DNA of 57,927 nt, the filler included, from Sphacelaria rigidula (Eukaryota), in the NCBI GenBank assembly GCA_964200075.2. It is 5 parts of 5 records of this genome, joined end to end, with 100 filler letters (N's around TTAATTAATTAA, not from the genome) between each part and the next. Parts side by side here need not be neighbours in the genome. Positions count along the whole stretch, not along the records: positions 11,607 to 23,112 come from CAXNAA020004851.1; 4 more parts are not named here. One strand, given 5' to 3'. Made by a program: the position numbers and the translations under genes. Of this stretch, positions 1,523-57,580 are shown one piece after another. Under the pieces are notes generated by a model that saw only the letters and a list, made by a program, of their open reading frames with translations, was not told the origin of the DNA and searched no databases. Numbering within the stretch: position 1 is the first letter of the stretch; the number at the start of each line of letters is the position of its first letter.

Positions 1523-1626
1523 CCGCTACCGCTACCGCTACCGCTACCGCTACCGCTACCGCTACCGCTACCGCTACCGCTACCGCTACCGCTACCGCTA
1601 CCGCTACCGCTACCGCTACCGCTCCC
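1523..1626 (+). repeat. (GCTACC)n hexamer microsatellite, poly(Ala-Thr) in Gag frame
   Basis: About 17 perfect units seen directly. Confidence 0.95.
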
Positions 1627-4543
1627 GCTCTCGCTGCCGCCGCTACCGCCGAAATTCTCGATCGCCCTCCCGCAGCAGGCGTCAACACTATGCCATTAGG
1701 TGGGGATCCCGGGAACGTCGCCACCACCGGAGGGAGCAAAGGTCGTACCAGCAGCAGGCGGATGCCGGGTGGCTAAGGCGCTGGGGTTGTGAAGCACTAG
1801 GAGCAGCAGTTGGAGCTGCGGTTCAAGGTCTGGAATCTAACCAGCTATCGAAGGTGAGCGAACAGGTACGTAGGCGTATTACGCGCGGTCGATCATGCCC
1901 AGTGAACGCAGGACCAAGTGCGGGGAAACTATCGGTTGTCATCAGCGCTGTCTTGCTGCAACACCGGATATGGTCGACGCTGCGTGCAATGGACCAGGGA
2001 GTCTTGAAACTGCCGGAGGATGAATACGTCAAGTAAGTGGATAACCCAGACAGATCAGTACTCCGCCCGCCGGCGCGAACTCCTAATCGAGCTGCTGGCG
2101 GAAACTAGTGATACGTTCACGTCCCTAACCTCAGCGGCTCGAGTAGAAGTTTGTCGTATCACGGGCGAAACCGATACCGTCCCACATGAATCCGTTACTA
2201 TGACCGACTCGCTATGGATCCTCGTCGGTGGGGAAGTGATGACGAACAGGGCCACGAAGTTTATACACGCTGCACTCGACTCCATCACCGTAGGACCCAA
2301 CGAATCGTGGAGTGCGGGAGCGGAACGGGTGTTGCTAGCATTTCGCGCGAGTTCAGCAAACCCGGACCGACCATACAGTACTGAAGCCACGTATTTCTGG
2401 CGATTCATCTCCGCCCGGCAGCTAAGCGAGCTTTACGATCGTACTATCCGAGTCGTTTCACCTAACCCGGTTGATAGGCTAGGTCTAATGTCGATCCTCC
2501 ATGAAAAAACACACGCTATCTGGGCCAGGCTGCAGCCTCTGAGGAGCGACTGGCACAGTCCAATGGGGTTAGGAATGCAAAGAAGGGGAGACGTAGCCAA
2601 GAGTCTGTACCAGAACTTCATACGTATCGTGTGCGCCCGCAACATGGTATACAGCGACGACATTCACGCTCGCCCCCAAACGCGTACTATCAACCACATC
2701 GCAGGACCTGACAGACTATTTTCACTTGAGGAAGTAAGGAACTTGCTACAGTCGCCCACGAAGGTCGCCGCCATGCTCCAGCAAGCTAACCTGGGGTCAC
2801 CTCCCTCCCCCGGAGTGCTGCCCGCCCTGTCAGCCCCTGCTGCGTTCTCTAGACCCCAGGCGTTAGGCGGCCACCAGTCGGCAGCAACTTCCGTCGTGGC
2901 TTTCAAGAACCACCTGGCGGCCTCACCGGTCTCACACGGCGTGCCCTTCATGCAGCAAGGTTCGACGCCCATCAACCCCGACCCTCGCGTCACGACTCCG
3001 AATCATACCGCCGCACCCCGCGCGGTAGATTTGCAGCACAAAGACCCGTCACCGCGATCTGGGAGCGCTTCGCCGTCACCGACACCCGCCGCATCCGGCC
3101 AGCCAGTTGGACCTGCCTCGACTCCCAAGCCATCCATACCGCCGATTGCGGCGGGACGTGACGCAGTGGTCACCCTCTTACATGATCGTGAAATCTGCTT
3201 CGGTTACGCATTCACCGGCTCGTGCCGTCACCAGGGCAACACCCCTTGTCCATGTACGCACGGTATCATCCCGGCCGCACACTACAGCGGCCTACCGGCC
3301 CGCCACAAGACGGCCATTCCCCAACGCCGGCTAGCCGCGCTCACGGAGGCATAATACTTGGCAGCAATCGACCTGGGTCTCGCCGGCGAAGGCCAAGACG
3401 ACGACGTCGAAGATATGCTAAGCGCATCCGTGAGCGAGGCCGCCGCTGGCGACACTCGAGCCGATGCGTGAAGACGCGCCCCGGGTGCAAATGACCTGGG
3501 GAACATACGCGGACCCAGCGCCACCACAATACCCCAGCGTCGCGGAAGCCAACTTTGGGTGACGGGCGAGATCTGGCACCGACGGCGTCTCCGTCGGCCG
3601 TGGCCGACAGAAGTCTTGTTGAACACGGGAGCGGGAGGTGGCAACTATATGTCAGGAGCGTTGTGCCGCAGCTTACGCAAGGCCAACATCTTGGGAAATA
3701 CGCCCAACCCTGAGGCGGCAGGTGTTCTCTGTGCAGCTAACCCATCCCAGAGTAAAGTCCGCCCAATGCGCATAGTCGGTTTCGTAACTGTGCCCTTGCT
3801 TTTAACCTCCGACTCACGGATCCGTAATGTACCATTACAAGAAGTGGAGGGCCTGCCGTACGGCTTCATTTTAGGTGCATATTATTTCCGGTACAATAAC
3901 AGTATTCTAGATTTCGTTCCAGAAAAAGGGTTCCGCCCCTCGCCAGCGGCGCCGTGGATCCCGTTCCTAACGTGCGAAAATCCTACCTACCACATTCAAG
4001 AAATATTAGTAACTCTGAACACCAAGATGGAAAGCACCGCCTCCCTAGCTGCGCCCGCTTGTCCGCCCATCCACAACTACTCCAGCTACCGTGAAATAGC
4101 TTGAGAAGACGACAGCAGCCTCGAGTAGAAGCTGCGCTTGGTCGGACAAACGACCATGCTCAGCGGCTTCGTCAGCGCCGCGGTAGCAACAGTCGCGATC
4201 GGTCCTCAACCACAGGATAGGCAGCTTGTGCTTCTACTCCCACAGGCAAAGTTCGATCTGGACAAGGGAGCAAAGGTGGGGATCGCAAAGGGAGTATCGT
4301 GGTGGCAGCCGGGGTCACCGGTGTACTGTAAATTTGTAAATAGAAGTAAGGAGCAGGTAGCGGTGAAGCCTACTGGCACTGTCGCGCGTATGATAACACT
4401 GAACATACGCGACCCCGCCAGGTTTCACTCAGTGTTTGACCCACATCCGTCTACGACAGACCCCTCCGTGGACCCCCCAACGCGCGCCTCACGTCCAGAC
4501 AGTAGTTGCCCGGCCCAACCAAACCCCAAGGTCAACGTGACGG

Positions 4544-4794
4544 GAGTCATCCTACGAGAGGGGGGGGGAGTATTTTGGGCCACTTCTTGCACGAAATTCC
4601 AAGGCATATCGCCGTTGAGATCAACAACGGTCGCTCGAGCGAGCTTGTTGTACATAAATAACGCTCATTTATAACGATTGACACCGTTCTGAACCAAATA
4701 CAAGCACATCTCGAGTGTGGCAAGTCGTCTGACATACTTTTGAGCCTTTTTTTTCGTGCAATCAAACACCCCCCTCCCTATCGTAGGATGACCC
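4544..4794. mobile_element. 251-bp MITE inserted in gypsy pol, 4-bp TSD (Sola-like by TSD/terminus)
   Basis: TIRs gagtcatcctacgagagggg / ccctatcgtaggatgaccc; TSD ACGG at 4540-4543 and 4795-4798; removal restores frame PKVNVT-DANMGQL. Confidence 0.85.
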
Positions 4795-7700
4795 ACGGAC
4801 GCCAACATGGGCCAGCTTGGAGCAGGGGAAAAGAGAGAGCTGGTAGACACGCTGCTCAGCTTTATCGAAGCTGGATTGTTCCCCACAGACCCCAAGTGGG
4901 TTCCCCCTTCTATCAACGGGTGAGCTCGAACTCCCCCTCACTAACGAGTCATGTACGCCATTCGTAGCTAAGCAACGCCGGTTTTCCCCGGAGGAACGTC
5001 ACATGATCCGCGAAGAGATGCACAAGCTCCTTGCTCGCGGGATCATTCGACCCTCGACCTCCCCGTGGGCAGCCCAATACCTATGCATGAAAAACAAAAG
5101 ACGGCACCTTGCGCTCGTGCATTGATTGGCGTGAACTGAAGAAACTCCCAGTGTCTGACAGTGGGGGTCTCGGGGATATACAATCCATTTTCGACGGCCT
5201 CAAAGGTAAGCGTTACTTCGACCAACTTGACATTGCCTCCGGTTTTCACCAAATCGAGATCGCGGAGAAAGACCGCTTCAGGACGGCATTCCGAGATGCA
5301 GATGGCCTCTTACACAAGCTTACACGAGCAGGCTTTGGTCAGACAACTCTACCCGCCGCGTTCACCCGTCGGGTAAAAGGTACGGTGAGACAGTTGGATG
5401 GGGTGCTCACCTGGCTTGACGACATCCTCATCGCGACCATATCCTGGGACGAGTATCTAGCTCTGCTCGTGATCGTGTTACAACGCTTGTTGGTCGCGGG
5501 ATTCTCGATGAACTTCGCCAAGTGCATTTTTGCATCGGCGTCGCAAGAGTTTCTGGGCATGCTGGTAGATAGCAGTGGCCTTCAACCCGCGCGCCGCTAT
5601 CGCTGAAATGCCCAGACTATCCACCGTCGAGGAACTACGTACTTTCCTCGGCCTCACAAGTACCTGCGCCAGTTCGTCGAGAGATAAAGCATAGTAGCCG
5701 CCCCACTAATCGACCTGCTCCGCAACAAAAAATTCGCAATCAAGCGAGCACGAAAGCTGTCCATAACGTGGAATATCGGGTAGGAGGAGGCATTCCAAGC
5801 CCTCAAAGCAGCCTTGTCCTCGCCGACGGTACTAGCCTTTCCCGATCCCAACAACGCGTTTGTACTACAGACAGACACAAGCGAGGTGGGTGCTGGGGCG
5901 GTGCGGGTGCAGCCGGTGGGGTGCAAAACACGCGCATCGTATCATTTGGCAGCCAGCGATTCTCTCGCAACGACTCGCGCAGAGCACTCACACCACGAGA
6001 GTGCATGGCTGTCTTGTGGACTGTCCAACACTCTAGATCATACTTAGCTTGAAGAAGGTTCACCTTAATCACTGACTGTTCGGTACTCATATGGTTGTTC
6101 CGTAGCCGCGATTTCTGCCCCAAGCTACACAGGAGGGCCCTGCGGCTAATGGAGTATGACATTGACCTCCAGTGGCGAGGAGGGTCTCAACATGTGCTGC
6201 CACATATGCATTGTCCCGACTCCCATACGCGAGTGAGCCACAGCCCGACATTGATGACTCCTTTCCGGACGATTTCTCGTCAGGCTCGCCGACAGAATTT
6301 GTAGGCCCACGGGGACCACAACTCGCAGGACAACGACTGTCGAAACTACAACCAGAAGGAGCGGGTACGTCAGTGAGCGCAGACACAAGTATGCACTCAT
6401 CGTTGAACTCCAACAACCCACCGGACATCGCAACCCTGAGGTTACTCCCTTTCTCAGAGTGCGCAGTCATCACCGATAACCAACCTGTGCGCCGTTCGAC
6501 TCGTACTCGCAGACCGTCAGTACTGCCTGCAACCCCCGATGTTGCGTATACAACATCCCTGCCCTTCACTCCTCAAGTGGTTGCCCCAAATCCGCCCGCA
6601 GAGCCAACACTGATCAAAGTACCGCTACAGGTGCCGACACCGATCGGTCCGCCGACAACAGGTGAGAGGGTAGAAGTGGGTGAAGTGCTCCTAGCTGGGG
6701 GAGAGATGCCAACGGAGTTAGCGGATCCGGACCTGACGGACACAACGGCGAACGCTCATGCACTACGGATACTCACCGACGTGAGCAATCTCCGGCATCA
6801 CCAACAAGGGGATTCCTTTCTCAAACAGGTACAGTCAGGTCTTGCAGGCAGTGAAACACCAGAGATGGTGGATGAGAGACGGTCAGACTACAAAGTAGAC
6901 GAGCGAGGTATGCTGTGGAACCGAGCAGGCGACGATAAGGAGCTGCTAGCTGTCCCGAAAACGATAGTAGCTGACTTGTTGGCACTCGTGCATGCACTCC
7001 ATGGACATGCTGGAGCAGGCGCTACCCTTGCTCTGATGTGCGACCGCTTCTATTAGCCTACTATGACGCGTGACACCAGACAGTTCGTGCTGTCGTGCTG
7101 TAGACGACGCAAGAAGGCAAGCAGCCGTCAAATGGCGATGAGACCGGGGCGCATTCTACACCCATGGGCCGAGTTAGAAATCGACTTACTAACCATTGAT
7201 GTGATGTCGCACTCGCGCAACAAGTACATTCTGCTGGTACTTGACCGAGCCTCCCGATCCCCGTTCGAGTTTCCTCTGCCATCAAAGGAAGCGGACGAGA
7301 TCGCACGCATCCTAGCAGAGTTATGCCTAACTTTTCGTGTCCCACAAATGGTCCGACGCGACAGGGGCAAAGAGTTCATGGCCGATGTCGTCACGCATCT
7401 GTGCAGGTGGTTGAAGGCGGACACCGCCTTTGGGCCGTCAGACCACCCACGCGGTCAGGGAGCGGTCGGGCGACTTGGGGGATGGCTGTTAGACACGCTA
7501 TCGGAACTATGTAGGCTGTGGCCCCAGAGGTGGGATGAATATGTCTCACCCGCCCTCTGGATCAAGTGCATATTGTCCGACACATCGCTCCCCTCTAACA
7601 TGTCCTGTTTTGAGCTGCTGTTCGGCCGCAAACCGCGCACATCGCTAGACTCGCTCGTGCCCCTCTCACAAGAAGCAGAACCGAGCAAGGGACTAGATGA

Positions 7701-9782
7701 CTTCGTTGAACAGCGCAAACAGAACCTCCGCGAGGTAAGGATGGCGATGGACAAACGGCAGGGGGCAAAAGCAGCGTCGCGGAAGAAGGGCAATGCAGCC
7801 ATCTGGAGACCATCAGTAGGCGTGCCGGTCACGGAAGGGGATCTGGTAATGGTGAAGGAGAGTGGGAGCTCCACGTATCGAGTGGCAGGGGTAGGAAGCT
7901 GCAGCACGACAGGAATACGGGACCTTGGATGGTGAAAAAGGTGCTGATGGTCGGACACAGTCTCGAGGGAGTGACGCAAGGACGAAAACTACTTACTCGC
8001 ATAGTAGCCCCGTCTGATGTCAAACCGTACCATGTACGGCCGCCGTACTTGAGGCACTCCATTGCCGACGAGTTCGCCCAGTTTGCATGGGGATCGGACT
8101 TCAAGATATCGTCTTCTCCTAACCCCACAACCCGCCTCCTTACCCCAGTGAACCGCCGCGAGGGTAAATCAGGGAAAGGAAGTGCAGGTTGGGAATACCA
8201 AGAAAGGACTCAGGAGGGGGCGACGTCGGAGTGGCTTCCGGAAAGCAGGTCTGGGAAAGCTTCACACCTCTGCGACTGGATGGGCTTCACGCACGCTGGT
8301 ACCTCTACCACCCAGCCGAGATACCAAGTACGCCGTCTCGCCCGAGCATACGCCATGCCCCCCTCTCACGCAGTGATGCCCTGAACTTGTTCCCCATAGG
8401 TTTCACGTTCTGGAAGAATTTCGGTGAGGTCAAGCAGAAGGGACAAGTGTTCGACTACGGCAAGCGCTTCTGGAGAGTGCGATACGACGACGGGGACTGG
8501 GAGGAGTTGTCACGAAGAGAACTCCAACAGCTAGCGCAGTCGAGCGAGACGGCAACACCGCCAGTCACGAGCTAGGAAGCGGCGTGATGGAAAAGTAAAT
8601 AAATAAAGAGAACGGCACTAGATGGGATAAAGCTTTGAGTATCAACCGTCTAACACAGTACCTTGAGAGTGTGCAGTCTGCATCCTTTTGTTTCCGGTTT
8701 TCGTTTTTTTTATTTATATATATAGTTTTGGGAAGGATATACGAGTCATTTCTTGAGTCTCTTTTGTTTTCTTCCTTTCTTCGCTCCCTTCCCCCTTCTT
8801 TTATATAGATATACACTTATGGCGGATGGATCTTGTTAGATCAGCCGTTTCTTTGTCTGCCCTGGGTTTCATAGCCTCTTTTGCTTGTTTCCTATGGCCA
8901 TTTTTTGTCCCATAGCGCCTACGCGGCTCCTCTGTTTCTTCACAGCTTGGTTTTCTCGTCCTGAATGGATGCGGAGTTGCGGTGCCCTTTTTCTCGCTGT
9001 GTAATATTGCTTCATATATATATATATATATATATATCCCTTTTTCTCTCTCTTTTTTTATATATTATTTCCTCTGTGGTCAGTCCTAGTTCCGACTCAT
9101 GTTTTTTTCCTTTTTGTCTCCGTGAATGCGGATCCGACTTCAGGGTGCTCCACTCTTTTCGAGTAGGAAACTTCATGTCGTAGAATTAGCATTGTACAAG
9201 AAGGGTGGGCACCGTGTACCTGCCTGGACATTGTATCGAGACAAAATTCTTGATCTGAGATGTAAGAACCCCCGGTATCCAGTAGGTCAGCGGTTGCTGG
9301 TCGACGGGTGAAGAGCCTACGCACTCCCATCAGCCAGCAAACGTATTGGGGCTTTTTTAGTGGGCCAGCTTTTTTCGAGTCCCAAACTACCCAGGGTTGG
9401 TGTAATCAATCAGGGGTGTCTACGCGCCGTTACCACTTGAAAATAGTTTTTGAATATCCTCAGTGGTTTCTGTTTCCAGTGTAACTGGGATCCCGGGACG
9501 ACATAGTACATGCGAAAGCACTCGCTATAATTCGAAAGGGCGTGGGAGATTATTTCCCCAAACAATGAGGCTTTTCCCCTGAATACCAGTTTCGGCCTAT
9601 CTTGTGATTTCAAGACGAGGTTTTCCCGTGGTCATCGCTAGCCCTGAAACTCCACGGTTTTCTTGTCTTTGGCGTAATATAAGGCTGATGGCATGTATCT
9701 GAGTGGATTTTCCCCGGTATGAAATAAGCCGTGACACTCCCTACTTTGCATTGAGCAGCGCGCACAAAGCAAGAGAGGGGGA

Positions 9783-11339: not shown

Positions 11340-11504
11340 TAACAGGGGATTCTATAAATTGAGGTTAATCAATGAAATGAGGTTCGAGGAGGCTAGCCAG
11401 TATGCGACAAAAACCCGAGGGAAGTACCGTCCGCAAGTGCCTTCGAACATTTTCGGGGGGGGGGGGGGGGCATACTCATTTGTTGCTTGCCTCAGTCGTT
11501 TGAC
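11340..11504 (-). repeat. Right arm of ~160-bp inverted repeat bracketing contig 1
   Basis: Inverted match to 113-270; runs into the contig end. Confidence 0.9.
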
Positions 11505-11506
11505 CG

Positions 11507-12090: not shown

Positions 12091-12096
12091 ACATAC

Positions 12097-15000
12097 CTGG
12101 AGACGCAGTTTGCTTTCGGTAGCCTTGTGTGCCAGAAGGGCAGCTCGGGCAGACTCCTTCAGAGCCACCATCTCCCCCTCCAGCTCTGTCACCCTCTGGA
12201 ACAAGAAAAAAAAGCGGGGACACGAAAAGTGGAGAAAAACTATATATATACATGAATAATAAGTATAACTATAAAATGAGGGACAATCCCCGCACCGGTC
12301 TGTAGCGGACAAATTACCAAATATCGTTGGTATGGCGCGCGCGCAAGGTGGGGTGGGGGGGACTATAAGACCACTTGTTTTGGCAACCAATTTCGATTTG
12401 TACAAATATGAGGATTTCAGTCCGTCTACAGGTGATTTTCTCCCGCGGATTGCATATTCGGATCCCAGTCCGTTGGGCAAATGTTTTTCGGCTTCATGTG
12501 AGAAAACCAGATCAATTCTTCGATTTTCTGGACGTTGACTTTTGATGTATCGCCTTCTTGCTCAGATCGGGACACTCCCGCATCTCCCCCGTTTGTTGAA
12601 AAAGTGGGGGACGATACGGGAGTGCCCCGATCTGAGCAGAAGGGTGATGGTCAACGTCCAAAGAATCGGAGAATCGATCTGGTTTTCTCACATGTAGCCG
12701 AACAACAATGCCCAACGGACTGGGGTTCGAAAAATCAATGCACGGGAGAAAATCACCCGTAGACGGACTGAAATCCTCACCCTCACACTTGTACAAGTCG
12801 AGATTAGTTGCCACAAAAGATTACCTAAGTGGGCAGCGTGCAAAAACCACACCCTGGACAATAGATTCTATCGTAAAAAAATGTACTGCGTACAGTATGG
12901 AATATAGTGTCTATTGCAATAGGCGCAACAGTCTATACTGTACGCAGTACACTTTTTGACTGTGTATTCTGTTGTCCAGGGCATGGCAAAAACCACGAAG
13001 TGTTGAATTTGGATGATGACTATCTGTGGAGATCGCCATTTTAGCATGTGCGGAGAGATTTCCTTTCATGACGTGTAACCTAGTGAACGGCTGTTACAGG
13101 GGTAGTTCCTGGGAGCCCCGAAACTTCAATATCTGTGCAGCGGGATCTGGGACCCCAAGGTAACAGGGATATTTCCAGCGTACTGCCGGCTATCCCTGGG
13201 GATCACTTCGACGTCGTTTTCGGGCTAACTCGCTTGCGCTCGTCGAGCTATCCCGAGGGATCCACTTGCCTACACCCCACGACTCACGGACAATCCTTTA
13301 CTACATAACACGAGGAAAATCATCGGCCACCTTCGACGGTTCCTACCGTCACCGGGAGTTTCACGACCTATACATATCCCTGTGAAAGGCGGGGAAATTC
13401 GCACAAATTTGGAGACGTCGGACAGATCATGATCCGTTTCAGAAGTACTTCCTCTCAGTGTAGCATCATCATCCGGATCGTTCGCCCCCCCCTTTGCATG
13501 TTTGCTCCGTACAGCGCCCGACCCCGAGCACGCCGAGTAGCGCAAAGGTTGCGTGTTGGCTTCTCTGACCCCGCGGTCACATATATTGTGTTTTTAGACC
13601 AACGGATCTGAGAGCCTTCCACACCCTGGACAATAGATTACATCGTCAAAAAATGTACTGCATACAGTATGGGATATATCGTCTATTGCAATAAACAATA
13701 GATCCCATACTTTTAGGTAGTACATTTTTTGGCAATGTAATCGTTTGTCCAGGGTGTGGCGCCTTCTCTCATTAGAACAGTTATCTCAGACGGATCATGC
13801 ATGATCTGCCCTACATGTGCGAGTTTTCGTAGAGAAGTGATCAATATATCATATACAAATTGATGGGGACGGGGGGGAGCGGGCGAAGACAAAAATATGT
13901 TGCGGGAAAAAAATAACGTCGTACATGATATCCGATTTTTCTTCCGCTTGTGTTATCGCCGTTATTTAGCCTCAACCAGCCGAACGCGTGAGACGGACCA
14001 ATCCGCCCGAAAGCCAATGGATAGTTACACTTGAGTTGCTGTGCACTGCAGACCAGAAACGCACCAGAAAAGCATTCGTAACTCAAGATGAATGAATGAA
14101 TGCGCCAACACGATGTATACCTGGAGGTGAGCTTCCGCCTGAGCCTTCGATTCTTCTGTGGCCGCCTCCAGACGGATCAGCTTCAAACGCAGATTTTCCA
14201 CCTGTGTGAGATCGCAGCAACGAAGCCATGATGCCCCACGACAAGGTGGATTGGTTTGGTTGATTAGTGTCACGCGCTTGAGTAACTGACACGCCACGCA
14301 TCTATCATCTATTGGTTGTATCCGAGGCAAATAGCAGCGCTCGTGAAAGCAAACTGGAAAATTACTCAAAATAAACACATACATACGCTGACTATAACAA
14401 ACGCGACTGGACTTCACACACACCACTGGAGTATTACACAGCTCAAGTCTTACACACACAAGTGGAGTATGACACACACAGCTGGAATATAACATACACA
14501 GCTGGAGTGTAACACACGCAACTGGGGTATGATATACAGACACACAGACACACCTCTCCTTGCGCCTTGTGTGCTCTCTCCTCGGCCGAAACCGCCGCAG
14601 CCTCCGCTAACCTCCGACGGTTCTCGGCGTCCCGGCACGCATTTTCCGCGTTGGCCGCGCGGTCGGTCAGCGACGCCTCCGCTGCCCTCACGGCTTCCTG
14701 TCTCCGCCTCATCTCTTCTTGCAGTGACCGAACCTTTTTTGTTTGTGTTTTAATTGCATTCATCATCACATTATGTAGCGAAAAAGTAATACTCGCAACA
14801 GGAAAAAAACAGCAAACCACAAAATCGACTACAAACGAGCACTATTGATTATTTTATTTATTACCTCATGATACACAGTTGATATTAAATATCATATGGA
14901 ATACTATACAGAATATTATGTAGAGCTTACCAGAGATAAGGCAGCATTTTTTCTTCACTCATATACGTGTACATACAAATCGAACATATAGTTTTTCTCT

Positions 15001-21800: not shown

Positions 21801-22659
21801 GTGAGTAAATAGTACACATATATACCATATTTATTTATTTTATTTTATTTCGCGTCTTGGTCGGCTATGTTATTCCGTTCCACCTTTTCTTGTTTCTTTT
21901 TTTTCTCCTTCAGCGTGTGCTCAAGTTTTGTCTTGCCTTGGGTACATATATCATGCGACCACGGCAGGATCCCTGGGGAGTAAGTCAAAGTACGACAATC
22001 AATCAATCGATCAATCAAAATCAATACCGGGAGGGGGGGGGGGGGGGGGCGTCCTAATTTGCGGCCTGCCTTATTCGTATGNNNNNNGAAAAAAAAAAGA
22101 AGAAAAGAAAAAAAAAAAAAAGAAAGAAGAAAAAACGGGGGGGGGGGGGGGGGGGGGGGGGGGGGAGGGGCGTACTCATTTGCGGCTTGCCTTAGTCGTA
22201 TGACCTTTGACTACGCATCATCCCTTTCGAGACGGAGCATACACACTGGGGAAGAGACAAAATGTTTTGATCGATCAATCGATCTACGGGTCATCCCAGG
22301 AAAATGTGGGGGGGCTACAGAAAAACGATAAACGAGAAGAAAAAAAGCGGGTGCTCGTGTAGCGTGGATTTGAAACGATAAAAACGACAATATATATATA
22401 TATATATATATTGAAAAATACGAAAATACTTCTTTTGTTTTCCTCGAACCCACAGTAGTTGCAATAGGCCTATACTTCACCCCAGTACATTTCTTGTCTC
22501 GTCTATTGCATACTACTGACCATATATTGTCCAGGATGTGAAACGTTGTTTTTTTCCGCATGTTTACCTTCTACGCACGTCCTCCTGCCTATCCCTCGCC
22601 TCGTCTTCTCTCCTGTCAGCCTCCCGTCTTACACGCTCCAGGGTTTCCTGCAGCTGGTC
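12097..22659 (-). CDS. TMF1: TATA element modulatory factor / golgin TMF1-like, internal exons 22568-22659, 15099-15174, 14554-14733, 14121-14201, 12097-12195 (partial both ends)
   Basis: GT-AG exons join in phase to DQLQETLERVRREADRREDEARDRQEDVRRRWKDAVARAEALQAEAHESTAPLLRQVRSLQEEMRRRQEAVRAAEASLTDR...; REDxxR, STxPLLRQ and xLxDR match the central coiled coil of TMF1/Sgm1/GC5. Confidence 0.85.
12374..12819. mobile_element. ~445-bp foldback element (long imperfect palindrome)
   Basis: Arms of ~210 bp pair around ~12597 (e.g. gaggatttcagtccgtctac / gtagacggactgaaatcctc); TSD not clear. Confidence 0.85.
12848..12985. mobile_element. hAT-type palindromic MITE, family A
   Basis: TIR cacaccctggacaa / ttgtccagggcatg; exact 8-bp TSD GCAAAAAC. 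Confidence 0.9.
13620..13758. mobile_element. hAT-type palindromic MITE, family A second copy
   Basis: Same TIR; TSD GAGCCTTC / GCGCCTTC. Confidence 0.85.
14400..14535. repeat. ~22-bp minisatellite (acacacagctggagtat-like)
   Basis: About six degenerate units just inside a TMF1 intron. Confidence 0.75.
15331..16706. mobile_element. 1.38-kb non-autonomous hAT element
   Basis: TIRs tagggctgtgaactgg / ccagtttacagcccca; exact 8-bp TSD AAAATTAA; subterminal aactgg repeats. Confidence 0.85.
16992..17260 (+). mobile_element. hAT MITE family B, copy 1
   Basis: Homologous to 21261-21538; flanks (G/T)TATTATT. Confidence 0.8.
17335..17620 (+). mobile_element. tRNA-derived SINE-like repeat
   Basis: B-box GAGTTCAAATCTC (~17349); 3' part matches 34818-35015, which ends in (CA)n. 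Confidence 0.6.
17951..18190. mobile_element. hAT MITE carrying 5S rRNA fragments, copy 1
   Basis: Perfect 15-bp TIR cagggctctttacgt; exact 8-bp TSD ATATTTTT; internal ttaagcgtcgggcctggctagtactacggtggggg. Confidence 0.9.
18284..18407 (+). mobile_element. Short (GTT)n-bearing repeat with Helitron-like 3' end
   Basis: Hairpin gcggacgccttccgt then ggtcacaggCTAG; inverted copy at 35593-35742. Confidence 0.6.
19282..19486. mobile_element. hAT MITE with ~55-bp TIRs
   Basis: caagggcaggtcgagtag / ctactcgacctgcccttg; exact 8-bp TSD GACCTTTG; nested in an older repeat whose uninterrupted homolog is at ~33900-34010. Confidence 0.9.
19733..19965. mobile_element. hAT MITE carrying 5S rRNA fragments, copy 2
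   Basis: Ends aagggcac / atgccctg; TSD GATTTTTT / GGTTTTTT; 5S-like arms at 19781-19832 and inverted 19855-19893. Confidence 0.85.
21261..21538 (+). mobile_element. hAT MITE family B, copy 2
   Basis: Exact 8-bp TSD GTATATAC; partial third copy inverted at ~51350-51538. Confidence 0.85.
21955..22026 (+). repeat. Retroposon-like 3' end with (AATC)n tail
   Basis: gaccacg..ggatccctgggg...cgacaatc(aatc)n, second copy at 41080-41146. Confidence 0.6.
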
Positions 22660-22757
22660 CTGGGACGCGGGGGACACAGGAAACGAGCAACGACGGAGTC
22701 AAACCAACAAACAAGGACACGAGTGATTCCACGATAACCTCCCGCCCCAAACCAGCA

Positions 22758-23024
22758 GTGCTCCGTCTCGGAAGAGGTGCGTAATCAATGGTCAAACGAC
22801 CAAGACAAGGAACGAATGAGTACGCCCCCACTCCCCCCCGAGAGCAACTAGCCTGGTCCGGCGAAGCCCCGACGTGCTCCGTCCCGGCTTCGTGGGGATG
22901 CGAGGTCAACGGTCTTATGACTATGGCATGCAAGATCATGAGTACCCCCCCCTTCCTCCCCCCTGCTCCGTCTCACAGGGATGCGCGGTCAGTGGTTGAA
23001 CGACTGAGGCAAGCAACAAATAAG

Positions 23025-23050
<26 letters not shown>
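22758..23050. repeat. Three tandem copies of the structured ~70-nt C-run-associated repeat
   Basis: (g)tgctccgtc...gagtac units at 22758-22823, 22874-22945, 22964-23025, each followed by a C-rich run. Confidence 0.9.
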
Positions 23051-23055
<5 letters not shown>

Positions 23056-23112
23056 ACGGGTTTTTTACCCCCCGTCTCCAGGCCGTGACACCACAAACAA
23101 AGTAAACACCCC

Positions 23113-23212: not shown

Positions 23213-23559
23213 ACGGAGCACCGTTCCTACTCCTAATAGAGACACCTTCAACATTCTGGCGCTCATTACTTTTCTTGTGTGTGGGGGGGAGTGTTCTGAG
23301 ACGTATCGGATTTCCTCCGTCTAAAGGGCAAGGGCGTGAGTAGTAGGAAACTTTTTTTTGACGGGAGTCGACGGAATGTGGGAGTGTCGGTCATCATTCA
23401 ATTCCCAATACCAAAATGGAAGACGTATACCGAGGGAGAGATGGGCTGATCAATTGAGGCGATGGACGCGTCCCTAGAAAGAGCAAGAGTTTCAAATTTT
23501 GACAAAAGAAAAAGAAACGCAAGGGGGCAGCCCCGCTTCCCACCCGTCCACCTGCTGAG

Positions 23560-27100: not shown

Positions 27101-30100
27101 TACCTATCGTCAGTCAAAACACGGTTGTGAGTTTTGGTGAGTGAGGCGCGGAAAGATTTTGCAGGGATGTACAACTAACGAAACCTTATGGTTCGAGTAC
27201 CTAGTGCACAAGTATTATACATACTCGGTAGGGCACGTCAGACTGTCTTAGACGCCCGACATGCACGCCAAAGGAAACACAGAGTTGCAGCTGCTAGCTC
27301 GTTTTGTCCAAGTATTCGTGTGTATGTGACGGACGGATGCAAGGCAAGGCAAACAAGGTGTAAACCAGTTGTCGTAACCTTTTTCCACGAGAACATCCCT
27401 ATTGAAAGCGCATCCTTCACTTGTATCTCGTGCAAATCCAAGACCAGGGTGGCCGGTGCAGCTTCCACATACGGCTTGCCGTGTGTAACAATGGTGCCGG
27501 CGTGCTTTATTGACGGCCACGGCAAGTCCGCGGGTCGTTCCGCAAACATTTGTATCTCGCGCTGAGATATTAGGCCTCGAAAATGCACGCGAAAGGGGAC
27601 GAGCATGTTGTCCGGAGCAAGGAGGGGGGGTACTCATGTATTGAATGCAATCAATGAGTCGATCATTGACCACGCGTCTTCACGCGATGGGGCAGATGGG
27701 GCGTACAGGTGCGGGGGGATTATGCTGTTGAAGTTCACGCTGACAGCGCATCGCCTGAGTAGCTTTTCAGCACTGCATACTCGGCACAATCAGACGTGAA
27801 GTTCGACTGCGAAACTTGGGTGACTGGCCCAAACAATGACCCTCAGAAGTTGGTTTGCGATGCTGTACGAGCAAAGTGCCAACGTTCTGTGTGCATTTCG
27901 TGTGGGCGTAGTACCTTGTGCTTCAGCAGTTTAAGCAGAAGAGGGTGTTTAAAATACCGCGCACGTAGAGAAATTCTGCTGTATTCTTACGATCTTTGTA
28001 CGAGAATAAACGCGTATACAATCCTCATGTCGTTTGTAAAGGGCGAGGACATGGATCCCATAACGCGTGGGATCTACTGCCGACGGTGTGCTTACCTGAG
28101 ACACCCCTTGGCACTCTTTCCACGACGGCGGAAATCCCTGCTTCCGGTAAGAGATTTCTCATTCCGAGGCTGTGAGTTGACGGGAGAAACACGGAGTATC
28201 GAGTCGCAGAAAGCGGAATTCTCTCAGTGGATGGCGCAAGCCGCGGTAATATAGTCCGACGAAAGTGGCATTGGACGCTCGCCGACCGCAGATCACATCA
28301 GCATGGCGTCTAGTTACTGCAAATATTAGTTACTACTTCGGCAATGTGAGTGGACAGACGCCAGCACCCCATATATAGGGGGTGCTTGAAAATGCCACAC
28401 AGTTGAAGTATATCCTGGATGGCCGGATATGTGCGGCTGAAGTGAGTAAGAACTAGGCGCATTGCCGAATACCTGACGAAGACTGATGAAAGCTCATCTG
28501 AAGATACCGCCCCATCGCCATCAATGTCGAAGAGTTCAAACGTGGCGCGATAGTCGACGGTTCCTGTCGTGAGTGACAATGCGGACGAGGAACATTGACC
28601 GTCGCCGAACGGGGTTGTTCCGAGTGCCGGTTTTTACCACACGCCTCTCCCCTCGGTAACGTAGACCTCGAGTCAACATGGTTTGTCGCCACCCATTTGC
28701 GGAAGAGGTACTCGTTTCGCCTAGTTGGCGAAGAGGTAATTTTGGGGTATCCTATGCGGAGCATAAAGCACGTGGTGGTAGACAAAGATACAGTACGCAC
28801 GCACATACACACACATACAGACACCCCGTGCGTACACTACTGCGAAGCAGCTGCAACACCTACCGTCTTCCTGTGCGGCATCTTCCAGCAGCAAAATCTG
28901 GGTTTTCCTCGTCACATCGTCCACCTTTCTCCGAAACTCCGCTGCTATGGGGTTCTCCGCACACCTATCGGGAACCAAACGCCGTCCTGCATCATCATCG
29001 TCAGCGTCAGCGCACGAAAAAACGACGACAGGGTCTACTGACAATATACCCGATGCCGTCCGCGAATCGCCGCTCGGATGTTTGACTATCCCAGGATCAG
29101 GGACGTCGGCGTGCATCGAGCTTTTGCGGTCAACGATAGCCCTTGCCGTTGTCTCGCTTTCGTTTTGCGTTGAGTCGACCACTTCCGATACTGCTCCGAC
29201 GACAGTACCGACAACCGTTTCTCCTTCGGCCACCGCCGTCGTGTTTCCTACCGCTTGCGTTTTCTCACTCGCCAGCAGACTTTGTCTATGGCCTGATCCT
29301 GCTACGATTCTGCTCGCACCGTCCTCTCCATCTTGTTGGAGGAGCATGCCCCCACTACTACCCGAGACGCGCGCGAGTTGTGGTGGTACGCCACTGCCGT
29401 CAACTGTAGAGTTACCTTCTGCAAGAATCTGTCCTGTGGCGCCCTTATTTGGTCCGCTCACTTCGCCGCCCTGGCGCGGTCGTTCAAGAGTTGACACGAT
29501 AATTCCGTCGGTTTGAACGGCAACAGACACCACCGTCGCGCTATCGCAAGGAGTCAACGCGCCCATGGTGGGTGCAACGAACCCTTCCGGGCTTACGCTG
29601 TCTTTAGTATCGAGAATCGGTGTCGACGCGGGAGTATCTCTGCGCCACACCAATCCTGCTTTCCCTGGCTCCGACCGTGCTCTTTCCACCGGCTGTTGGT
29701 CATCACAACCCACCACGGCCTCCGTTGTTTTGCTCAACTCTCCCGTATATCCGTCCTGCTGGCGATCCTGTGCGCCTTGTTGGTCGTCCCTACTGTGTTG
29801 CCCGTCGGGACTCTTCCGCGTGATTGACCAGTCGAAGGTGGCGGTGGTTTCAACACGAACATCTTGTTGCTCTGTAATGTGCGATGAAGTCGCTTTCTTC
29901 GGAGCAGCACAGGCATTACATCTCAATTTTCTGCTGCCACAGCAGCAGCATTCGGATGCCGTTTCCTTCGGCACAGGACCAGAGAAGACGCTACACCGCC
30001 TGTGCCGTCGACTGAGTCCTTTGTTGGCGCCGCTCGATGCCCGATATTGAGCCCTTGCACTCTTACTTCTCGCCCAGAGGGTTGTCCGTAGGCCACGTGG

Positions 30101-32106: not shown

Positions 32107-32689
32107 CTGGAACACATCCGTCGAGGAAGCTATATGCGTAGCCCATGTAATCGAGACGCAAGAACAGATGAACACGCGATTATACATATGACAGATGGGT
32201 GGGCTCTGAGTATTCTGCGCAAAGGTGCATGTTTATGAGCAAATGTTAGGGTGTACTCATGATCTTGCATGCCATAGTCATAGGACCATTGACCTCGCAT
32301 CCCTCGAAAGCCGGGACGGAGCACGCCGGCTTTTCGCCGGACCAGGCGCGCAAATATTGCGGGCGGGGGGGTGTTGCTTCGTGTGAGCCCGCCGAAGGGA
32401 ACAATTGTAACGCGTCATGGTGCTTGATAGCTTAAAATGTGTCAATGATAAATGTTGAGTTTTTGGGGTCAAATGTCTTCTCCGTAGACAGGTGTCACTT
32501 CTCTCTACACGTCCGAGCAACCAGCATTTCGCCTTTACTTGGTATTCGTGGAGTATTTCAACTATTATTTTCGTCGAATGCCATTCCTGCACTCAGGTGT
32601 CATTTCTCTCTAGACGTCTGAGAAACCAGTATTTCGCTTTCACTCGGTTTTAGAGAACGTCTACATCAGGTCGTTTTTACGCCTCTTGA

Positions 32690-35869: not shown

Positions 35870-38863
35870 CTGGATACTCACACAAGGACGCTCCTGGAGA
35901 GCTTCGGAGCATTGCTGAGGTATGCTAAGGTCACCACGCCGCAAAGTACAACCCAGGAAAACTTTCAGGTGAAGGAATGCTCGTGGAGAATGGGGGGGGG
36001 GGGACACTTGAGTGCGGTACAGCGGGAGCCGAATCGGGCCGCACCTTAGTGAGACCCTAAAGGACATAAGGTTAAGTTCAGCTACTGTTGGAGAGGTGTC
36101 GTCGGTGGTGTGCATAGTGATTTCGGTTGCACTTGAGTCGGGTCCCGCTTGAACGGGTCTTGCAGTAGTACTACTGTGGAATCCCGTCTGTGCTGGATAC
36201 TTTTGATGGTGACCGAGAGCATTTGTCACGGTTGGTGTACGCGTTGAGCAAGGGCCGACCGTGTGTGGCTCGTGCCAACAACCTTTATTGCTGTCCTGAA
36301 AGGCAATATTCGCGCTTTGCGATGTTTTGCCTCATGTTCGTTGCTCCTCCGTACGTGCAGTAAGATTGGTCCATCGGTAGATGGAGTATGGCGAGGGTAG
36401 CGTGTGCGGGTGCTGACGACTGTGCCGGGTCCGGTAGAAATCAACCACGTCATCATTCCTCTGCAATGCAAGAGGCCACCATTCGCTTTGCCGAAGCGTG
36501 GGTACTCTGCGATCCGGAGAGCTCGAAAATGGTTTGTCTAACCATCAAACACTTGAACGGGTACGCGTAGCGCAATCATACACCAGTAAAATGGTACATG
36601 ATGGTACCATATCCGAGCTCTAGTGGTCCGTCCTGTGCAACGTTTTTGCTGTTTGTATGTTCTGCCGGAGTTTTTTTTTCCGGTGTAACAGTGTTGATCC
36701 TCGACAGCCCACTGTCAGCTCACTCAGCTCAACTTCAGCTCAACTTCAGATCACCTAGGGATCGGAACAGATCAGATCACTTGATCTTTGTATGGTATCC
36801 CAAGTGACTTGATCACAGTTCATCACTCTGAGACCGATATAATAGCGCGAACGAGCCAATCGGACACACCACAGATCTCGGAACAATTGGCTGCAGATCA
36901 CTCAGATCAACCGTTCCGTTGCTGACGTCCGTATACCTCGCCGTCATCAGGTCTTTCTCCATCCTGTGCTGTGAAACGCTGAGGACACATTAAGTCCCAC
37001 TATCTATTTATTTTGACGTCATTTTGAAGGCCCGCCTTCGGGCCAGGTATTTGGAGAATGGCTTTTTTTTTTTCCTTGATGGAAGGAGGAAACCCAACCC
37101 AACACTCACCCCGCTGGCGCTGCACGATACGAATCTTAATGTTATCCATGTCACCACGGTACTCGGTTTGCCGTACCCTCGAAATGCGGGACGGGACGGG
37201 ACGGTACCGCGCTATCTTGGTAATATTGGCAGCACGATATGTGGTGTTCCGAAACCATTACGCGCTACCAGAAAACAATTCGGCGCTTGGGCGATACAAA
37301 ATTATTTTCGATGTTTTGCCGCGGTCATCGGGCACCTACCTCGGCATCCCACCGCGGTGATCCCAGCTCTCGCCATGCTATACTGTGCTGAAAATTCGAC
37401 TGCAAGTGGAAAAATGCGTGGTGTTATTACAGTCCCTGAGAGGGCTGGGCGGATGTTGACACCATTGGATGCCTTACTACACTTGTTGAGATGATTTCTA
37501 GAGACCTTCGCGTTTCCGGTGTCCGCAGTTTCTCTTTTGGCCAATACTGGCATTGTGCGGAATACTTCGAGGAGGGAGAAATCCCCGCAATATTCTCCAC
37601 AGAGAAGTGAAAACTATTTCACCGCAGGATCATTTTCAAATTATGCATCGATTTCATACTTTTTTTCCGGGTTGGAGTTTTGGCCAGTGATTATTTGCGA
37701 AAATCCCAAAGGCCTGCACGTCGGAAACATGGGCAAGAGTTTTCTCAGTGAGGTTAAGCATAGTGGTGCAAGATACCTGGTGACGGTAATTCCTGTTCTG
37801 GAGACAATGACGATGTCAAGCATTTCAATATATCCGAAGCTCCAGGCAAGAAAAGTAAGGGAGATATATGCCTGGACTGGTCCGTGGAATGTTCCAACAG
37901 TACGTACCCCCACAATTGTATATATATATATATTTTTTTTTCGCGAAGGCTTTGGCGGTTGAAAGCCGCCCGAAGAGTATACCACGAGATTCGAGTCGAG
38001 AGACCGTGGGTGAACATCGAAGTCGTCCATAATAGAGAGTTTCGGAAGACGCTTTTTGTTGTTTTTTAGTGCAAATATCCCAGGATCGGATTGTAGCGAA
38101 AAATATTTATTTCCCCCTCAGCCAAATGTGGTATCTATCCCCTTGGCGTTTTTTCGATGAGATTTTTATTCTGTTCTGATCTTTGATTCTGAGATATTTG
38201 CACTCAGAAATAAACAAAAAAAACGTTTCTCGAAACTCTCTAATGGTTCATTTTAGGTTTGGAAAATCGCTGTTTCTTGGCTGAATGCCGTTTGTGGGCT
38301 GAAACCTCAGTGTTGTCATCCTTTGCCCAGCTATATCGAGAATTTGCGAGGATAAACGCGATCTAACGTCGCCATTCCAAATTTCTCTCCGCCTGCGAAT
38401 GCACCAGCAAGATAATCGATCACGTACACGTGATCTGATGGGTACGCATCATGCCCCTTACTGTTTGTGCACAGATCAACATTGCTACCGCAAGTCTGGC
38501 CACAGCCGGCGAAGGGCTGTTACGGCAGATCCGGGAGGTCAAGCTGGCCGTCATGCTCCAGGTCAGTTGCCTCTGTAAACCGTCATATGCTCCAGGTCAG
38601 TTGCCTCTGTAAATCGTCATATGCTCCAGGTCAGTTACCTCTGTAACCGTCGTGCTCCAGGTCGGTTGCCTCTGTAAACCTCGCAAAGTTTGTTCGTGTT
38701 CATTTTATCTAGTAGTAATACAGCGTGACCATCTCGTGTTTTCCGGGTGGAATTGAAGTAGCGGCTTCACGTACATTCGCGACCCGGTCTGAGCTCGTGA
38801 ACGTTTGTGCCTGCAAAGTGGGATAACCACGAATGTTTTTGCTTGCACCTTCTGAAACGCATG

Positions 38864-38919
<56 letters not shown>

Positions 38920-41439
38920 CTTTTTTCTAGTTTGAAACACAGAAATTGATCGCACTTATCAGATCAGAGCGTTCGAGTTCATTCAAAGATTGCTAGAGCT
39001 CGGAAAAGGTTTGCCCACCCATTAACTAGTTGAATGGTTACGCGTAGCGCAGTCACTAACCAGTTAAATGGTACATGATGGTTTGGTCATCGAGCAGCGC
39101 AGCCGCGAGCCAAAAGGCCTCCCCCGGCAGAGGGGCCCCCGCCGGCCGGAGGCGCCATGCCGGAGGCACGTTTATACGCGATTTGGCTTCACTAGACCTA
39201 AAAAATATGTCAAATTTGGGCCACTTTTCATGGGCTGTATGTAGCATACGTAGCCGGTAACGGTAAATAATGATTTGAAATCATTATCCCAAAAAGTCAT
39301 ATAACCATTACGATTATTACCATTATAATGATAACGGCCAGTTATAACTGATACCATTTCCGAGCTCCAAAGATTGCTGTATTGGTCTAGTTCGGGAAAA
39401 ATATCGCATATTTTTTTCTGTTCGGGTCGAGTACACGGGTACGACTCGCCGCGCACCCCGACGGTCCAAAAAGTGCATAATTCAACCGGCCAGGCCGTAG
39501 CACTGCTGTTTCTGGGTCATAAGCAGTGTTACGATAGGGGTTGTACTTCTTGTTCCTGGCTCTATTTTTTGTAGGGGCTCAAATGTATGGGGCTTAGGCC
39601 GGATGTAATGGCACACAGATTTTTGGCCCACGGATTGTTCACTATTGAAACGTTTGAGCTACTTTTTGACCCCCAAACAAAGAAAAAAATCGCCAATACA
39701 GGTCTCGGACACTTTGCATCACTGCACAAAGAGGAGCTCAGCCCACTTTTCAGATTCGCTTCGCTCCAAGGTTTCGAGAGCGGCCGCTGAACAATAATCC
39801 GTGTGCACTAAAATCTACGGCGATCTCCACATATTATTGGGCAAACTGGCGGGGGTCGACAAGCACAGATTTTTGCAGACGAATTATTGTTCGGCGGCCA
39901 ATCTCGAAACCTCGGAGCCAAGCGAATCTGAAAAGCAGAGTAGGCCCCTCTCCGTGGGGTAATGCAAAGCGTCCGAGACGTGTGTTGGCGGTTTTCCCTG
40001 TTTGGGGGTCAAAAGGTGGGTCAAAGGTCCCCAAAGTGAACAATCCGTGGGCCGAAAATCTGTTTGCCACAACATCCGGCCTTACTGTGCAATCCCAATC
40101 TCCGGGAACCGGACTCCCAGAAACATTAAAGTTTGCACGCAGGGGCCTTGTCGTGAATCGGCATCATTTCCAGTCTTTTTCAAGTAAAAATGATGCCGAT
40201 TCTTAAAGTGACCCGTCCGACACCCCGAGAAACATTTTGGCTAAAAAAAGTGCAACCCCTACCGTAGCATCACTCTCCAAGTCGATCCCTTTTTTTCTTC
40301 TTCTGAGGAGTATGTGATTTCCGTCAGCGATAGCGCGAGAGTGTGGGTAGGCAAAGGAGTTTATTTGACGGAAGTAGACGCGGTGCGGGAGTCATGATCC
40401 AGTCCGTGATATCATAATGTTGGGCATGTAATGGGGGAAAGATGGACTGACTTCGAGACTGCGGATTCGTCCCCGGAGAGGACAAGCGTAAAAAAAGAGT
40501 ACATCGTGGATTCTTCCAGACTGCGGGTACGACCCCAGAAAGGGGGAAGATCGAGAGTGTGACAAAAGAAAGGGGGAAGGATGCACTGGGCTACCTGCTT
40601 CGGCCGTGTCACTTGTATCAACGAGTCAGCATAACCTGCGAAGAACAAGCAGGTTGGGAGATGAGAGCATTCCATGGATGAGATCCAGGACGAGAAAGAC
40701 TGGGAGAAAAAAGGCAAACACATGTATGTGAATATCTACATCAATCCCCAGGCTCAGTCCTTACTGAGATCTAAAACTATGCATATATTACGGGCAGCAG
40801 CTGGGAATTCCCGCGCTTGGGTTCGTTCTCGCCAATGTCGCCCATATAAGGCGCGCTTCATGCAGCCTGAGCCCAAACATCAGGCGCTGTATGACCATTT
40901 TTTTCGTGACACTTTTGGGCTGGTTTTTGGCGCGGGGGGGGGGTACTCATTTGTCGCTTGCCTTAGTCGTTTGACCATTGACCACGCATCCTTTTTGAAA
41001 CGGAGCAGGTTTTGGGGGAGGGGGCTATCGTAGAAAGTCTCTGTTTTCAGTTTCGTTTTCTTGGGTCCGTCCGTCATCTGACCACGCCTGGATCCCTGGG
41101 GGGTCAGTTGAAGTGCGACAATCATTTAATCAAATCAATCAATCAACACAGGATAAGGAGGCGATGGATTGCGAGGTGGAGCAATCCCTGGCGAACATAG
41201 CCCAAGAACGGGAGCAACTGGAAAAGGAACTGGAAGCCCTGTCCAACGAACTAAAAGCGGCCTACGCAAGAGCGGTCACGGGAGAGGGGGCGGACGGAGG
41301 CGTGACAGCAGGCACGGAGGACGATACTGGTGTCGCTACAGGCGGAGAAACCGGAGGGAATTCCAGCAGTGACGCGGGGGTTGCAGAAACAGAAAGCAGA
41401 AGTGGTGCTGGGGGCGGTGGTGGACCAACGGAGGAATGA
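35870..41439 (+). CDS. MED22: Mediator subunit 22; exons 35870-35968, 38475-38561, 41152-41439 (first exon not located)
   Basis: Spliced product LDTHTRTLLESFGALLRYAKVTTPQSTTQENFQ|INIATASLATAGEGLLRQIREVKLAVMLQ|DKEAMDCEVEQ... follows the Med22/Srb6 pattern (F..ii..AK, QE, AGExLLxxIxExK, LxD). Confidence 0.85.
38549..38680 (+). repeat. Four ~33-bp tandem units each containing the MED22 splice donor
   Basis: cgtc(at)atgctccagGTcagttgcctctgtaaac x4. Confidence 0.9.
39597..40081. mobile_element. PIF/Harbinger (Tourist-like) foldback MITE
   Basis: ggccggatg / catccggcc termini, arms ~220 bp, 3-bp TSD TTA. Confidence 0.85.
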
Positions 41440-57194: not shown

Positions 57195-57580
57195 CATGTA
57201 CAGGCCGTGTATTTTGCCAACAGTACGAGGTTACAAGTACTGGCTGTACTTTGCAAACAAAGTACAGGTGCAGGCTGTACTTGTCACCTTGTACTACTGT
57301 ATTTCCGACTACAGACTGTACTTACTCTGCAAGCACAGTAGTGCAAGGTCGCAAGTGCAGCCTGTACTCTGCAAGCGCAGCTATACTTGCGAATACAGCT
57401 GTACTCGCGAGCGCACGAATGCAGTGCACGGTTACAAGTACAGGCTGTACTTGCGAACACGGTATACGATAGTACGAGGTAATTGCTGTAGTTTGCAAAT
57501 ACAACAGACAATATTAGTACAAGGACACAAACACTCTGTACTTTGCACACACAGTACAGTATTATAGTACGAGGTAGCCA
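57195..57580. repeat. Degenerate satellite (gtacaggctgtacttg / agtacgaggt motifs)
   Basis: Seen directly. Confidence 0.75.

Follow-up and report, generated by a model that had tools for sequence, protein, structure and literature searches.

A high-copy repeat followed by C runs in Sphacelaria rigidula: very probably the 3´ end of a LINE family

A sequence of ~70 nt recurs beside runs of C or G in the assembly of the brown alga Sphacelaria rigidula (GCA_964200075.2), and the question raised by this locus is what kind of element it represents. The window, that is, the whole stretch of DNA that was analysed (57,927 nucleotides, filler included), consists of five contigs of ~11.5 kb joined by N runs and a TTAATTAATTAA spacer. 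A preliminary description of this DNA had proposed that the repeat was a functional single-stranded RNA or DNA signal, either a transposon end or an unclassified structured RNA, with a strand-specific fold made of a closing stem and two hairpins.

Copies of the repeat in the window

The ten copies of ~70 nt listed in the preliminary description were all recovered, at the same positions or within a few bases of them, and they lie in four of the five contigs, as had been reported. A search with a 17-nt core, allowing up to three mismatches, gave seven sites in the window against 0.11 expected, and none of 100 shuffles reached seven. A covariance model trained on seven copies of the unit was used to search the window and three outside loci (L001–L003, described below). 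At E ≤ 0.01 it returned 12 matches, nine of them in the window; at E ≤ 1 it also returned a copy cut by a contig end (11469–11521) and two weak matches (14072–14106 and 55729–55794) that are probably due to chance. Two partial copies were added to the earlier list, at 22029–22081 and at 23213–23220, the latter being the first eight bases of contig 3.

The bin that contains three copies (22743–23112) had the highest summed depth of 30 bins in all four public runs, which belong to three studies; summed contig depth per bin does not equal copy number, and this high value fits a very abundant repeat. One public run containing the stretch is labelled as an algae metagenome. Contigs over units were also present in two runs whose RNA nature is a guess only, and contigs show neither ends nor level.

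Window units are found only as 3´ pieces of 66–95 nt, arranged singly, head-to-tail or head-to-head. The left end of contig 1 carries a minus-strand feature (14–92) comprising a 5´-truncated unit (48–92, sense GCGTGG to GAGTAC) and its C-rich tail, visible as a G run at 14–47. An internally deleted plus-strand unit followed by a short C run (93–156) lies head-to-head with it, the pair spanning 45–148. The right end of the same contig cuts a minus-strand unit with a 16-base tail, a G run on the plus strand (11455–11506). A block of 165 nt, made of a partial unit, a C run and a 124-nt sequence, occurs inverted at the two ends of contig 1 (113–270 and 11340–11504) with 88% identity; the blocks may mark both extremities of a larger element, represent two insertions in the same repeated target or result from the assembly.

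Contig 2 contains, on the minus strand, a G-run tail with the 3´ half of a degenerate unit (22029–22081), cut by the N gap at 22082–22087, and a complete short unit (22172–22240) with a long tail at 22137–22171 (whole feature 22137–22240). A head-to-tail trio follows on the plus strand (22758–23053). It begins with a complete short unit (22758–22823) and its C-rich tail, together covering 22758–22839. The second member (22851–22963) is a unit of ~95 nt from a second subfamily, with 22 nt of extra head, a longer first loop and a C/T-rich tail, and the third (22964–23053) is a short unit with a degenerate 3´ end (AATAAG) and a C run of 29 bases.

All the remaining copies are on the minus strand. 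A diverged fragment coding for a LINE C-terminus (23213–23375) extends 8 nt into a unit at the point where contig 3 starts, its 5´ end being upstream of the short-unit boundary. The feature at 27624–27695 is a divergent third variant that retains GCGTGGTCAATG and CATGAGTAC and has a 6-base tail (covariance model 18.3 bits, E 0.008). Another second-subfamily unit of ~95 nt (32248–32347) is followed only by ACCCT, with similar flank motifs on both sides, and is 89% identical to the one at 22851–22949. Finally, a complete short unit with a 10-base tail lies at 40933–41008.

A different sequence of ~105 nt adjoins the unit in contigs 2 and 4 (21924–22030 and 41049–41152, 76% identical), on the tail side of the unit at one site and on the 5´ side at the other. 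Possibly this is a further interspersed repeat, with a tendency to lie next to unit insertions.

The coding sequence behind the unit

A 21-mer of the unit matched a single locus among public metagenome contigs (L001). The 21-mer gave no match in genome contigs and a 20-mer gave none in viral contigs, where a protein-pattern scan yielded 91 pattern matches and no confirmed one. Two further DNA loci (L002 and L003) come from contaminated bacterial genome bins, and L007 is the whole contig behind L002. In L001, the upstream open frame runs through the unit and stops at a TGA inside ...AAATGAGTAC, after which the C run begins. L001, L002 and L003 share the same order of LINE coding sequence, unit, TGA GTAC and (C)10–13, and the ~66-nt unit (GTGCTC to GAGTAC) closes the ORF with 21 codons and the TGA stop, to which four bases are added.

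The reverse strand of L007 contains an intact ORF of 1382 aa (nt 999–5144), which is 88% identical to the database protein P0002 over residues 1–1360. P0002 (1360 aa) carries the domains RVT_1 (E 9.8e-31) and Exo_endo_phos (E 3.4e-12); among solved structures, LINE-1 ORF2p and R2 are its nearest relatives. The unit forms the last ~66 nt of the L007 ORF region, with the TGA located 4 nt before (C)13. Judging by the domains of P0002 and by the L007 ORF, an apurinic-type endonuclease (EN) is encoded together with a reverse transcriptase (RT) in one ORF that is continuous with the repeat. Since the L007 ORF ends in the unit and is followed by (C)13, the repeat is taken to terminate an autonomous single-ORF LINE at its 3´ end. 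It can be stated with high confidence that the repeat is the 3´-terminal module of a single-ORF EN-RT non-LTR retrotransposon (LINE) family, most likely RTE-X. In L007, tandem repeats of ~100 nt (CATATCAAAAC...AACTAACCAGTTTTTTTT) occupy nt 1–200 of the reverse strand and open a region of ~1 kb upstream of the intact ORF; they may represent a 5´ UTR or a promoter region of repetitive type in the LINE.

Of 130 candidates, 55 proteins match the C-terminal peptide of 108 aa at E ≤ 0.001. P0002 and, among the matches listed or aligned, most others end in ...GAPSRKGCVVNGQMTKASNK or close variants, a tail peptide of ~20 aa. Five of the 16 aligned database proteins continue beyond the usual stop into a Pro-rich stretch of the kind that a C run would encode. 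The named protein relatives belong to S. rigidula and Ectocarpus sp.; those of Ectocarpus reach 71% identity to P0002 over 500 aa. Protein Atlas provided generic EN-RT clusters without taxa, which did not inform the clade.

Within the window, tblastn of P0002 aligned only its last 20 aa (22754–22813) and a C-terminal fragment (23375–23214), and no LINE body was found by this search. All blastn matches of the window to L007 fall within the last ~130 nt of L007. By both searches, the window copies display the shared 3´ end and the 5´ truncation of APE-type LINEs.

The two possibilities that had been left side by side are separated by these data. The idea of a transposon end is borne out by the unit continuing the EN-RT LINE frame in L001–L003 and L007, and the strand that had been read as GTGCTC...GAGTAC(C)n turns out to be the sense (RNA) strand of the LINE, with the C run as the element's own 3´ tail. 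The idea of an unclassified structured RNA or ribozyme finds no support in a unit that is coding, unmatched in Rfam and of a kind catalogued in Ectocarpus. What the repeat represents is a real but ordinary transposon end rather than a novel class of RNA, and LINEs of this kind have been catalogued in brown algae before.

C tails, target sites and related LINEs

A run of at least five Cs is present within 25 nt after the unit (sense) in 13 of 14 copies (10 of 11 in the window and all three at the outside loci), the exception being the copy at 32253. Upstream, a run of at least four Cs occurs within 25 nt in each of the seven window copies with a true 5´ junction; inside the LINE (L001–L003), the longest C run upstream of the unit is one base. 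The (C)n tail directly after the unit is either templated or extended by slippage. Candidate target duplications beginning with a C run were found at only two copies, namely that at 32253, with ACCC...AAYATTTGC on both sides, and that at 40943, where a C run and AAAACC are present in both flanks; a third one (22172) is doubtful. At other copies, target duplications are obscured by nesting and homopolymers. Copies nested in older tails include the trio at 22758–23053, and in contigs of three public runs the 5´ end of a unit is joined within 3–5 letters to the next G run and unit.

The suggestion that the repeat seeds poly-G tracts and contig breaks agrees with the positions of the contig ends 1, 11506 and 23213 and of the gap 22082–22087, all of them in or beside units. 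The contig breaks are caused by repeat collapse and homopolymers. This explains the breaks of the present assembly at G/C homopolymers, and annotators can recognise this very abundant repeat by a simple signature, (C)n after the unit.

In mammalian L1, target-primed reverse transcription relies on the pairing of the A tail with a T-rich nick. By analogy, a homopolymer tail would also pair with the nicked target here, in this case a C tail with a G run. The C-run flanks and the nested copies, combined with the general model of target-primed reverse transcription, suggest that the LINE endonuclease would nick at G/C runs and that the exposed genomic G run would pair with the C tail of the RNA to prime cDNA synthesis. 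The reverse transcriptase would recognise the 3´ module, perhaps through the two hairpins and the invariant GGTCAATGG stretch. Insertions would accumulate beside C/G runs and within older tails, giving rise to C-rich target duplications and tandem arrays, and the high copy number together with the homopolymers would make short-read assemblies break at units. Unlike the element considered here, L1 acquires its poly-A tail by polyadenylation, is not known to need a specific 3´ module and shows a broad spread of 5´ truncation points.

The closest functional analogues would be the stringent LINE/SINE pairs and the minimal 3´ UTRs of RTE elements. The eel elements UnaL2 and UnaSINE1, reportedly described by Kajikawa and Okada in 2002, are said to form a LINE/SINE pair with a common 3´ tail recognised by the LINE RT. 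The simple repeat of such stringent tails may permit slippage at initiation. The resemblance would lie in a conserved 3´ hairpin module of ~60 nt followed by a simple repeat, present in both autonomous and short non-autonomous elements. In contrast to UnaL2/UnaSINE1, the tail here is a C homopolymer instead of a 5-nt repeat, the module lies in coding sequence and not in a 3´ UTR, and its recognition is putative.

The RTE clade, according to what Malik and Eickbush reportedly established in 1998, has very short 3´ UTRs ending in short simple repeats. It resembles the present family in having one EN-RT ORF and a minimal 3´ UTR, with a simple-repeat tail where a polyadenylation signal would otherwise stand. 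The difference lies in the homopolymer, which is C here, whereas the RTE families proper of Ectocarpus are given as ending in (CAA)n in the passages of PMC12477816 that were consulted.

Those passages of PMC12477816, a 2025 account of the Ectocarpus transposable element landscape, also contain the nearest match to the present family. RTEX-1_Ec32 and RTEX-2_Ec32 are described there as 'single EN-RT ORF; (C)n 3´', with a 'C-rich' TSD, and RTEX-N1/N2_Ec32 as their non-autonomous partners. RTEX-N1, which measures 607 bp, is annotated with 'can be present in tandem' and with '60 bp 3´ end 83% RTEX-1_Ec32/RTEX-2_Ec32', and the RTE-X families reach thousands of copies each. The CRE family is given as ending in (CA)n. 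Among the Ectocarpus LINE groups listed in these passages, (C)n ends are unique to RTE-X, and RTE-X is favoured for this reason. The placement is the most likely one on indirect grounds, namely the published description and the close Ectocarpus homologues.

As far as the RTE-X description in these passages extends, the resemblance covers the single EN-RT ORF, the (C)n tail, the C-rich duplications or termini (here the downstream and upstream C runs counted above) and the brown-alga host. It further includes a 3´ end of ~60 bp common to autonomous and non-autonomous families, tandem copies and an abundance of thousands of copies. The shared 3´ end and the tandem occurrence were found in the window as well: the second subfamily (22851–22945 and 32253–32347) and the third variant (27630–27695) have the module in common with the LINE, but not the LINE sequence upstream of it. 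By contrast, the shortest family in the same passages measures 188 bp, compared with 66–95 nt for the units studied here, and the passages make no mention of an RNA fold or of an ORF reaching within 4 nt of the tail.

The present family would add an example of a C-tailed RTE-X LINE from outside Ectocarpus, or at least an independent sighting. Among papers on non-LTR retrotransposons with poly-C, judged by their listings, none concerned C-tailed LINEs; PMC5381506 deals with C-rich tracts inside L1 3´ UTRs.

The fold, the rival readings and the sharp 5´ boundary

The exact units of L001 and L002 have a minimum-energy fold consisting of the closing stem and two hairpins, with z values of −2.4 (equalled by 4 of 200 shuffles) and −2.0 (by 9 of 200), respectively. 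The same three-stem fold is obtained for the copy at 32253, and close variants of it for those at 22172 and 22758; the other five units fold otherwise. Over ten sense-strand units, z ranges from −2.40 to +0.08, and seven of the ten values are above −2. Two antisense units folded at −6.9 and −8.4 kcal/mol, compared with −17.3 and −18.2 in sense, and had z values of +1.0 and +1.1. The strand specificity that had been claimed for the fold is upheld by these energies: the asymmetry is real and favours the RNA strand. When 70 nt of upstream context are included, both hairpins persist and the closing stem is replaced by other pairing. Earlier folds with arbitrary flanks (z −1.48 to +0.75) are superseded by the exact-unit folds. 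Hammerhead, twister and HDV-like ribozymes were considered as candidates and dropped, their core motifs not being recognised by eye.

Covariation was analysed in 12 sequences and 19 pairs, the bins holding L002 and L003 contributing one copy each and one weak match. A model-guided alignment was used because a MAFFT alignment of all variants misplaced the 5´ end of the second subfamily; it is fitted to the structure, and several of its rows are degenerate or chimeric. The originally described stems can indeed be drawn, with standard pairs in 90.1% of 222 pair cells versus 88.4% in column shuffles (6 of 500 shuffles as high). Double-sided changes affect three pairs, in one sequence each (2 of 500 shuffles), a count that is favoured by the fitting of the alignment to the structure. 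RNAalifold gave −5.21 kcal/mol with a covariation term of 0.06. The further claim that variants keep their pairing is weakly supported at most: the three double-sided changes are all singletons, and the covariation term is close to zero.

Constraint at the nucleotide level is indicated by another comparison. The loop of the first hairpin differs between subfamilies by non-multiples of three, so that the downstream reading frame is shifted from one to the other, and the nucleotides GATGCG-GGTCAATGG and ATGAGTAC are retained despite this shift. The divergent copy at 27630 has different, perfect hairpins at the same places. In more distant LINE proteins (37–51% identical) the C-x-V-N-G motif, encoded by the invariant GGTCAATGG stretch, is still terminal, and the conservation of the protein-tail block (0.87–0.90) is only slightly above that of other conserved blocks (0.85–0.88). 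With an ORF that reaches to 4 nt from the tail, an RNA signal for the RT, if there is one, necessarily overlaps codons. A signal of this type, recognised by the RT and overlapping the last codons, is plausible as a model, with its chances of being right or wrong roughly balanced.

Could the unit be instead a structured non-coding RNA in its own right, or a ribozyme that cleaves itself, with catalysis or folding as the reason for its conservation? The three-stem folds of the L001 and L002 exact units, the poor folding of the antisense strand and the stems that stay while loops vary by non-multiples of three would be in line with such an RNA, which is nevertheless very unlikely: the unit codes within the intact L007 ORF, the closing stem is lost with upstream context, and the RNAalifold values and the seven units with z above −2 point in the same direction. 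Moreover, the family covariance models of Rfam 15 matched no copy of the unit over the whole window at the gathering threshold, and the three sub-threshold matches obtained at E ≤ 10 over 22000–23112 are all unrelated to the repeat. That the unit is the terminal inverted repeat of a DNA transposon or MITE is extremely improbable, and so is its being a classical pol III SINE. The 6-nt ends of the unit are imperfect inverted repeats, and both ends of contig 1 carry a unit, a C run and the 124-nt arm in inverted orientation; against these points stand the continuity of the unit with the L007 ORF, the strict polarity of the tail and the absence of a transposase beside the unit, since a Pfam search of eight long frames of contigs 1 and 3 returned Ty3/gypsy-like RT and integrase only. 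ARAGORN detected no tRNA genes in the window, the unit heads measure 0–31 nt with no Rfam match adjoining the units, and no SINE head derived from tRNA, 5S or 7SL was found. The homopolymers themselves might be taken for sequencing or assembly artefacts (e.g. two-colour poly-G), with the repeat merely situated at contig ends, and several runs do lie at or near contig ends or the gap. This explanation is hardly tenable, given that the runs are always 3´ of the unit in either orientation, that many of them are internal with unique sequence on both sides (22137–22171, 22824–22839 and 40933–40942), and that they recur in three independent outside assemblies (L001–L003) as well as in the read-through proteins and in the contigs of three studies (four public runs).

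With the unit read as the 3´ module of a LINE, its sharp 5´ boundary is the one point that ordinary LINE behaviour leaves over. All four short main-family copies (22172–22240, 22758–22823, 22964–23024 and 40943–41008) start at LINE nt 5086/5087 of L007, and random 5´ truncation of an element of ~5 kb does not explain four junctions out of four at one base. A separate sharp 5´ edge marks the second subfamily at 22851/32347, with 84 (X1) and 60 (X4) contigs ending loosely there. The copies at 22758 and 40943 have ~31 nt upstream in common and are for that reason not clearly independent. Comparison of the upstream flanks of short units with the 5´ kilobase of the LINE gave chance-level matches only, so that the units do not represent elements with a LINE head and an internal deletion. 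The boundary could reflect a template RNA that exists as a discrete molecule, an enzyme that preferentially stops or switches template at this point, or the duplication of a few founder loci.

The discrete template RNA would make the 66–95-nt units an ultra-short non-autonomous retroposon, made up of an RT-binding module and a C tail and copied end to end, with priming on genomic G runs, tandem arrays formed by template jumping and no promoter of its own. The common start of the four short copies, the edge of the second subfamily with its loose contig ends, the head-to-tail neighbours at 22758–23053 and in contigs of three public runs, and the coincidence of the unit boundaries with the closing stem, the isolated unit folding as a three-way junction, would all be expected from such an element. 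However, the junctions seen number only four plus two, of which 22758 and 40943 may be non-independent, and a preferred truncation or pause point of the RT would look identical. In addition, no promoter or processing signal was found, with no tRNA-like heads and no Rfam match, and at least one copy (23213–23375) reaches further upstream. This reading is put forward tentatively, as possible but rather doubtful. If it were true, the retroposon would be several-fold shorter than classical SINEs and would lack its own promoter. The units would also define the minimal template, or cis-requirement, of the RTE-X reverse transcriptase, and could help to understand, and perhaps to exploit, the way in which this enzyme recognises its template.

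Several other features of the window were observed. In contig 1, the hexamer GCTACC is repeated ~20 times at 1499–1664, in a GC-rich stretch, encoding Ala-Thr or Arg-Tyr in open frames. On the plus strand, 5091–7935 contains Ty3/gypsy-like remnants with an RVT_1 fragment (E 9.5e-12) and an rve integrase core (E 5.8e-07, just under the Pfam cut-off), with broken frames and no LTRs noticed. A near-perfect inverted repeat of ~27 nt (AAAAGCACGCCACTCACTACGTAA ... TTACGTAGTGAGTGGCGTGCTTTT) lies at the end of contig 3 (34655–34717), and a 34-nt unit is present in four tandem copies, 76–97% identical, at 38553–38685. A match to Rfam mir-130 on the plus strand at 57266–57370 (42.3 bits, gathering threshold 40.6) is a long hairpin with a 35-nt loop insertion, unrelated to the repeat, and probably represents an inverted repeat rather than a miRNA gene belonging to this organism. 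Finally, 12095–12195 and 14551–14731 (plus strand) are perfectly covered by one contig of 5402 nt (X7, guessed to be RNA), with 78 other letters between them, and a similar contig of 5171 nt (X6) also lies over 14551–14731; the two segments look like exons of a gene with repeat-filled introns of kilobase size.
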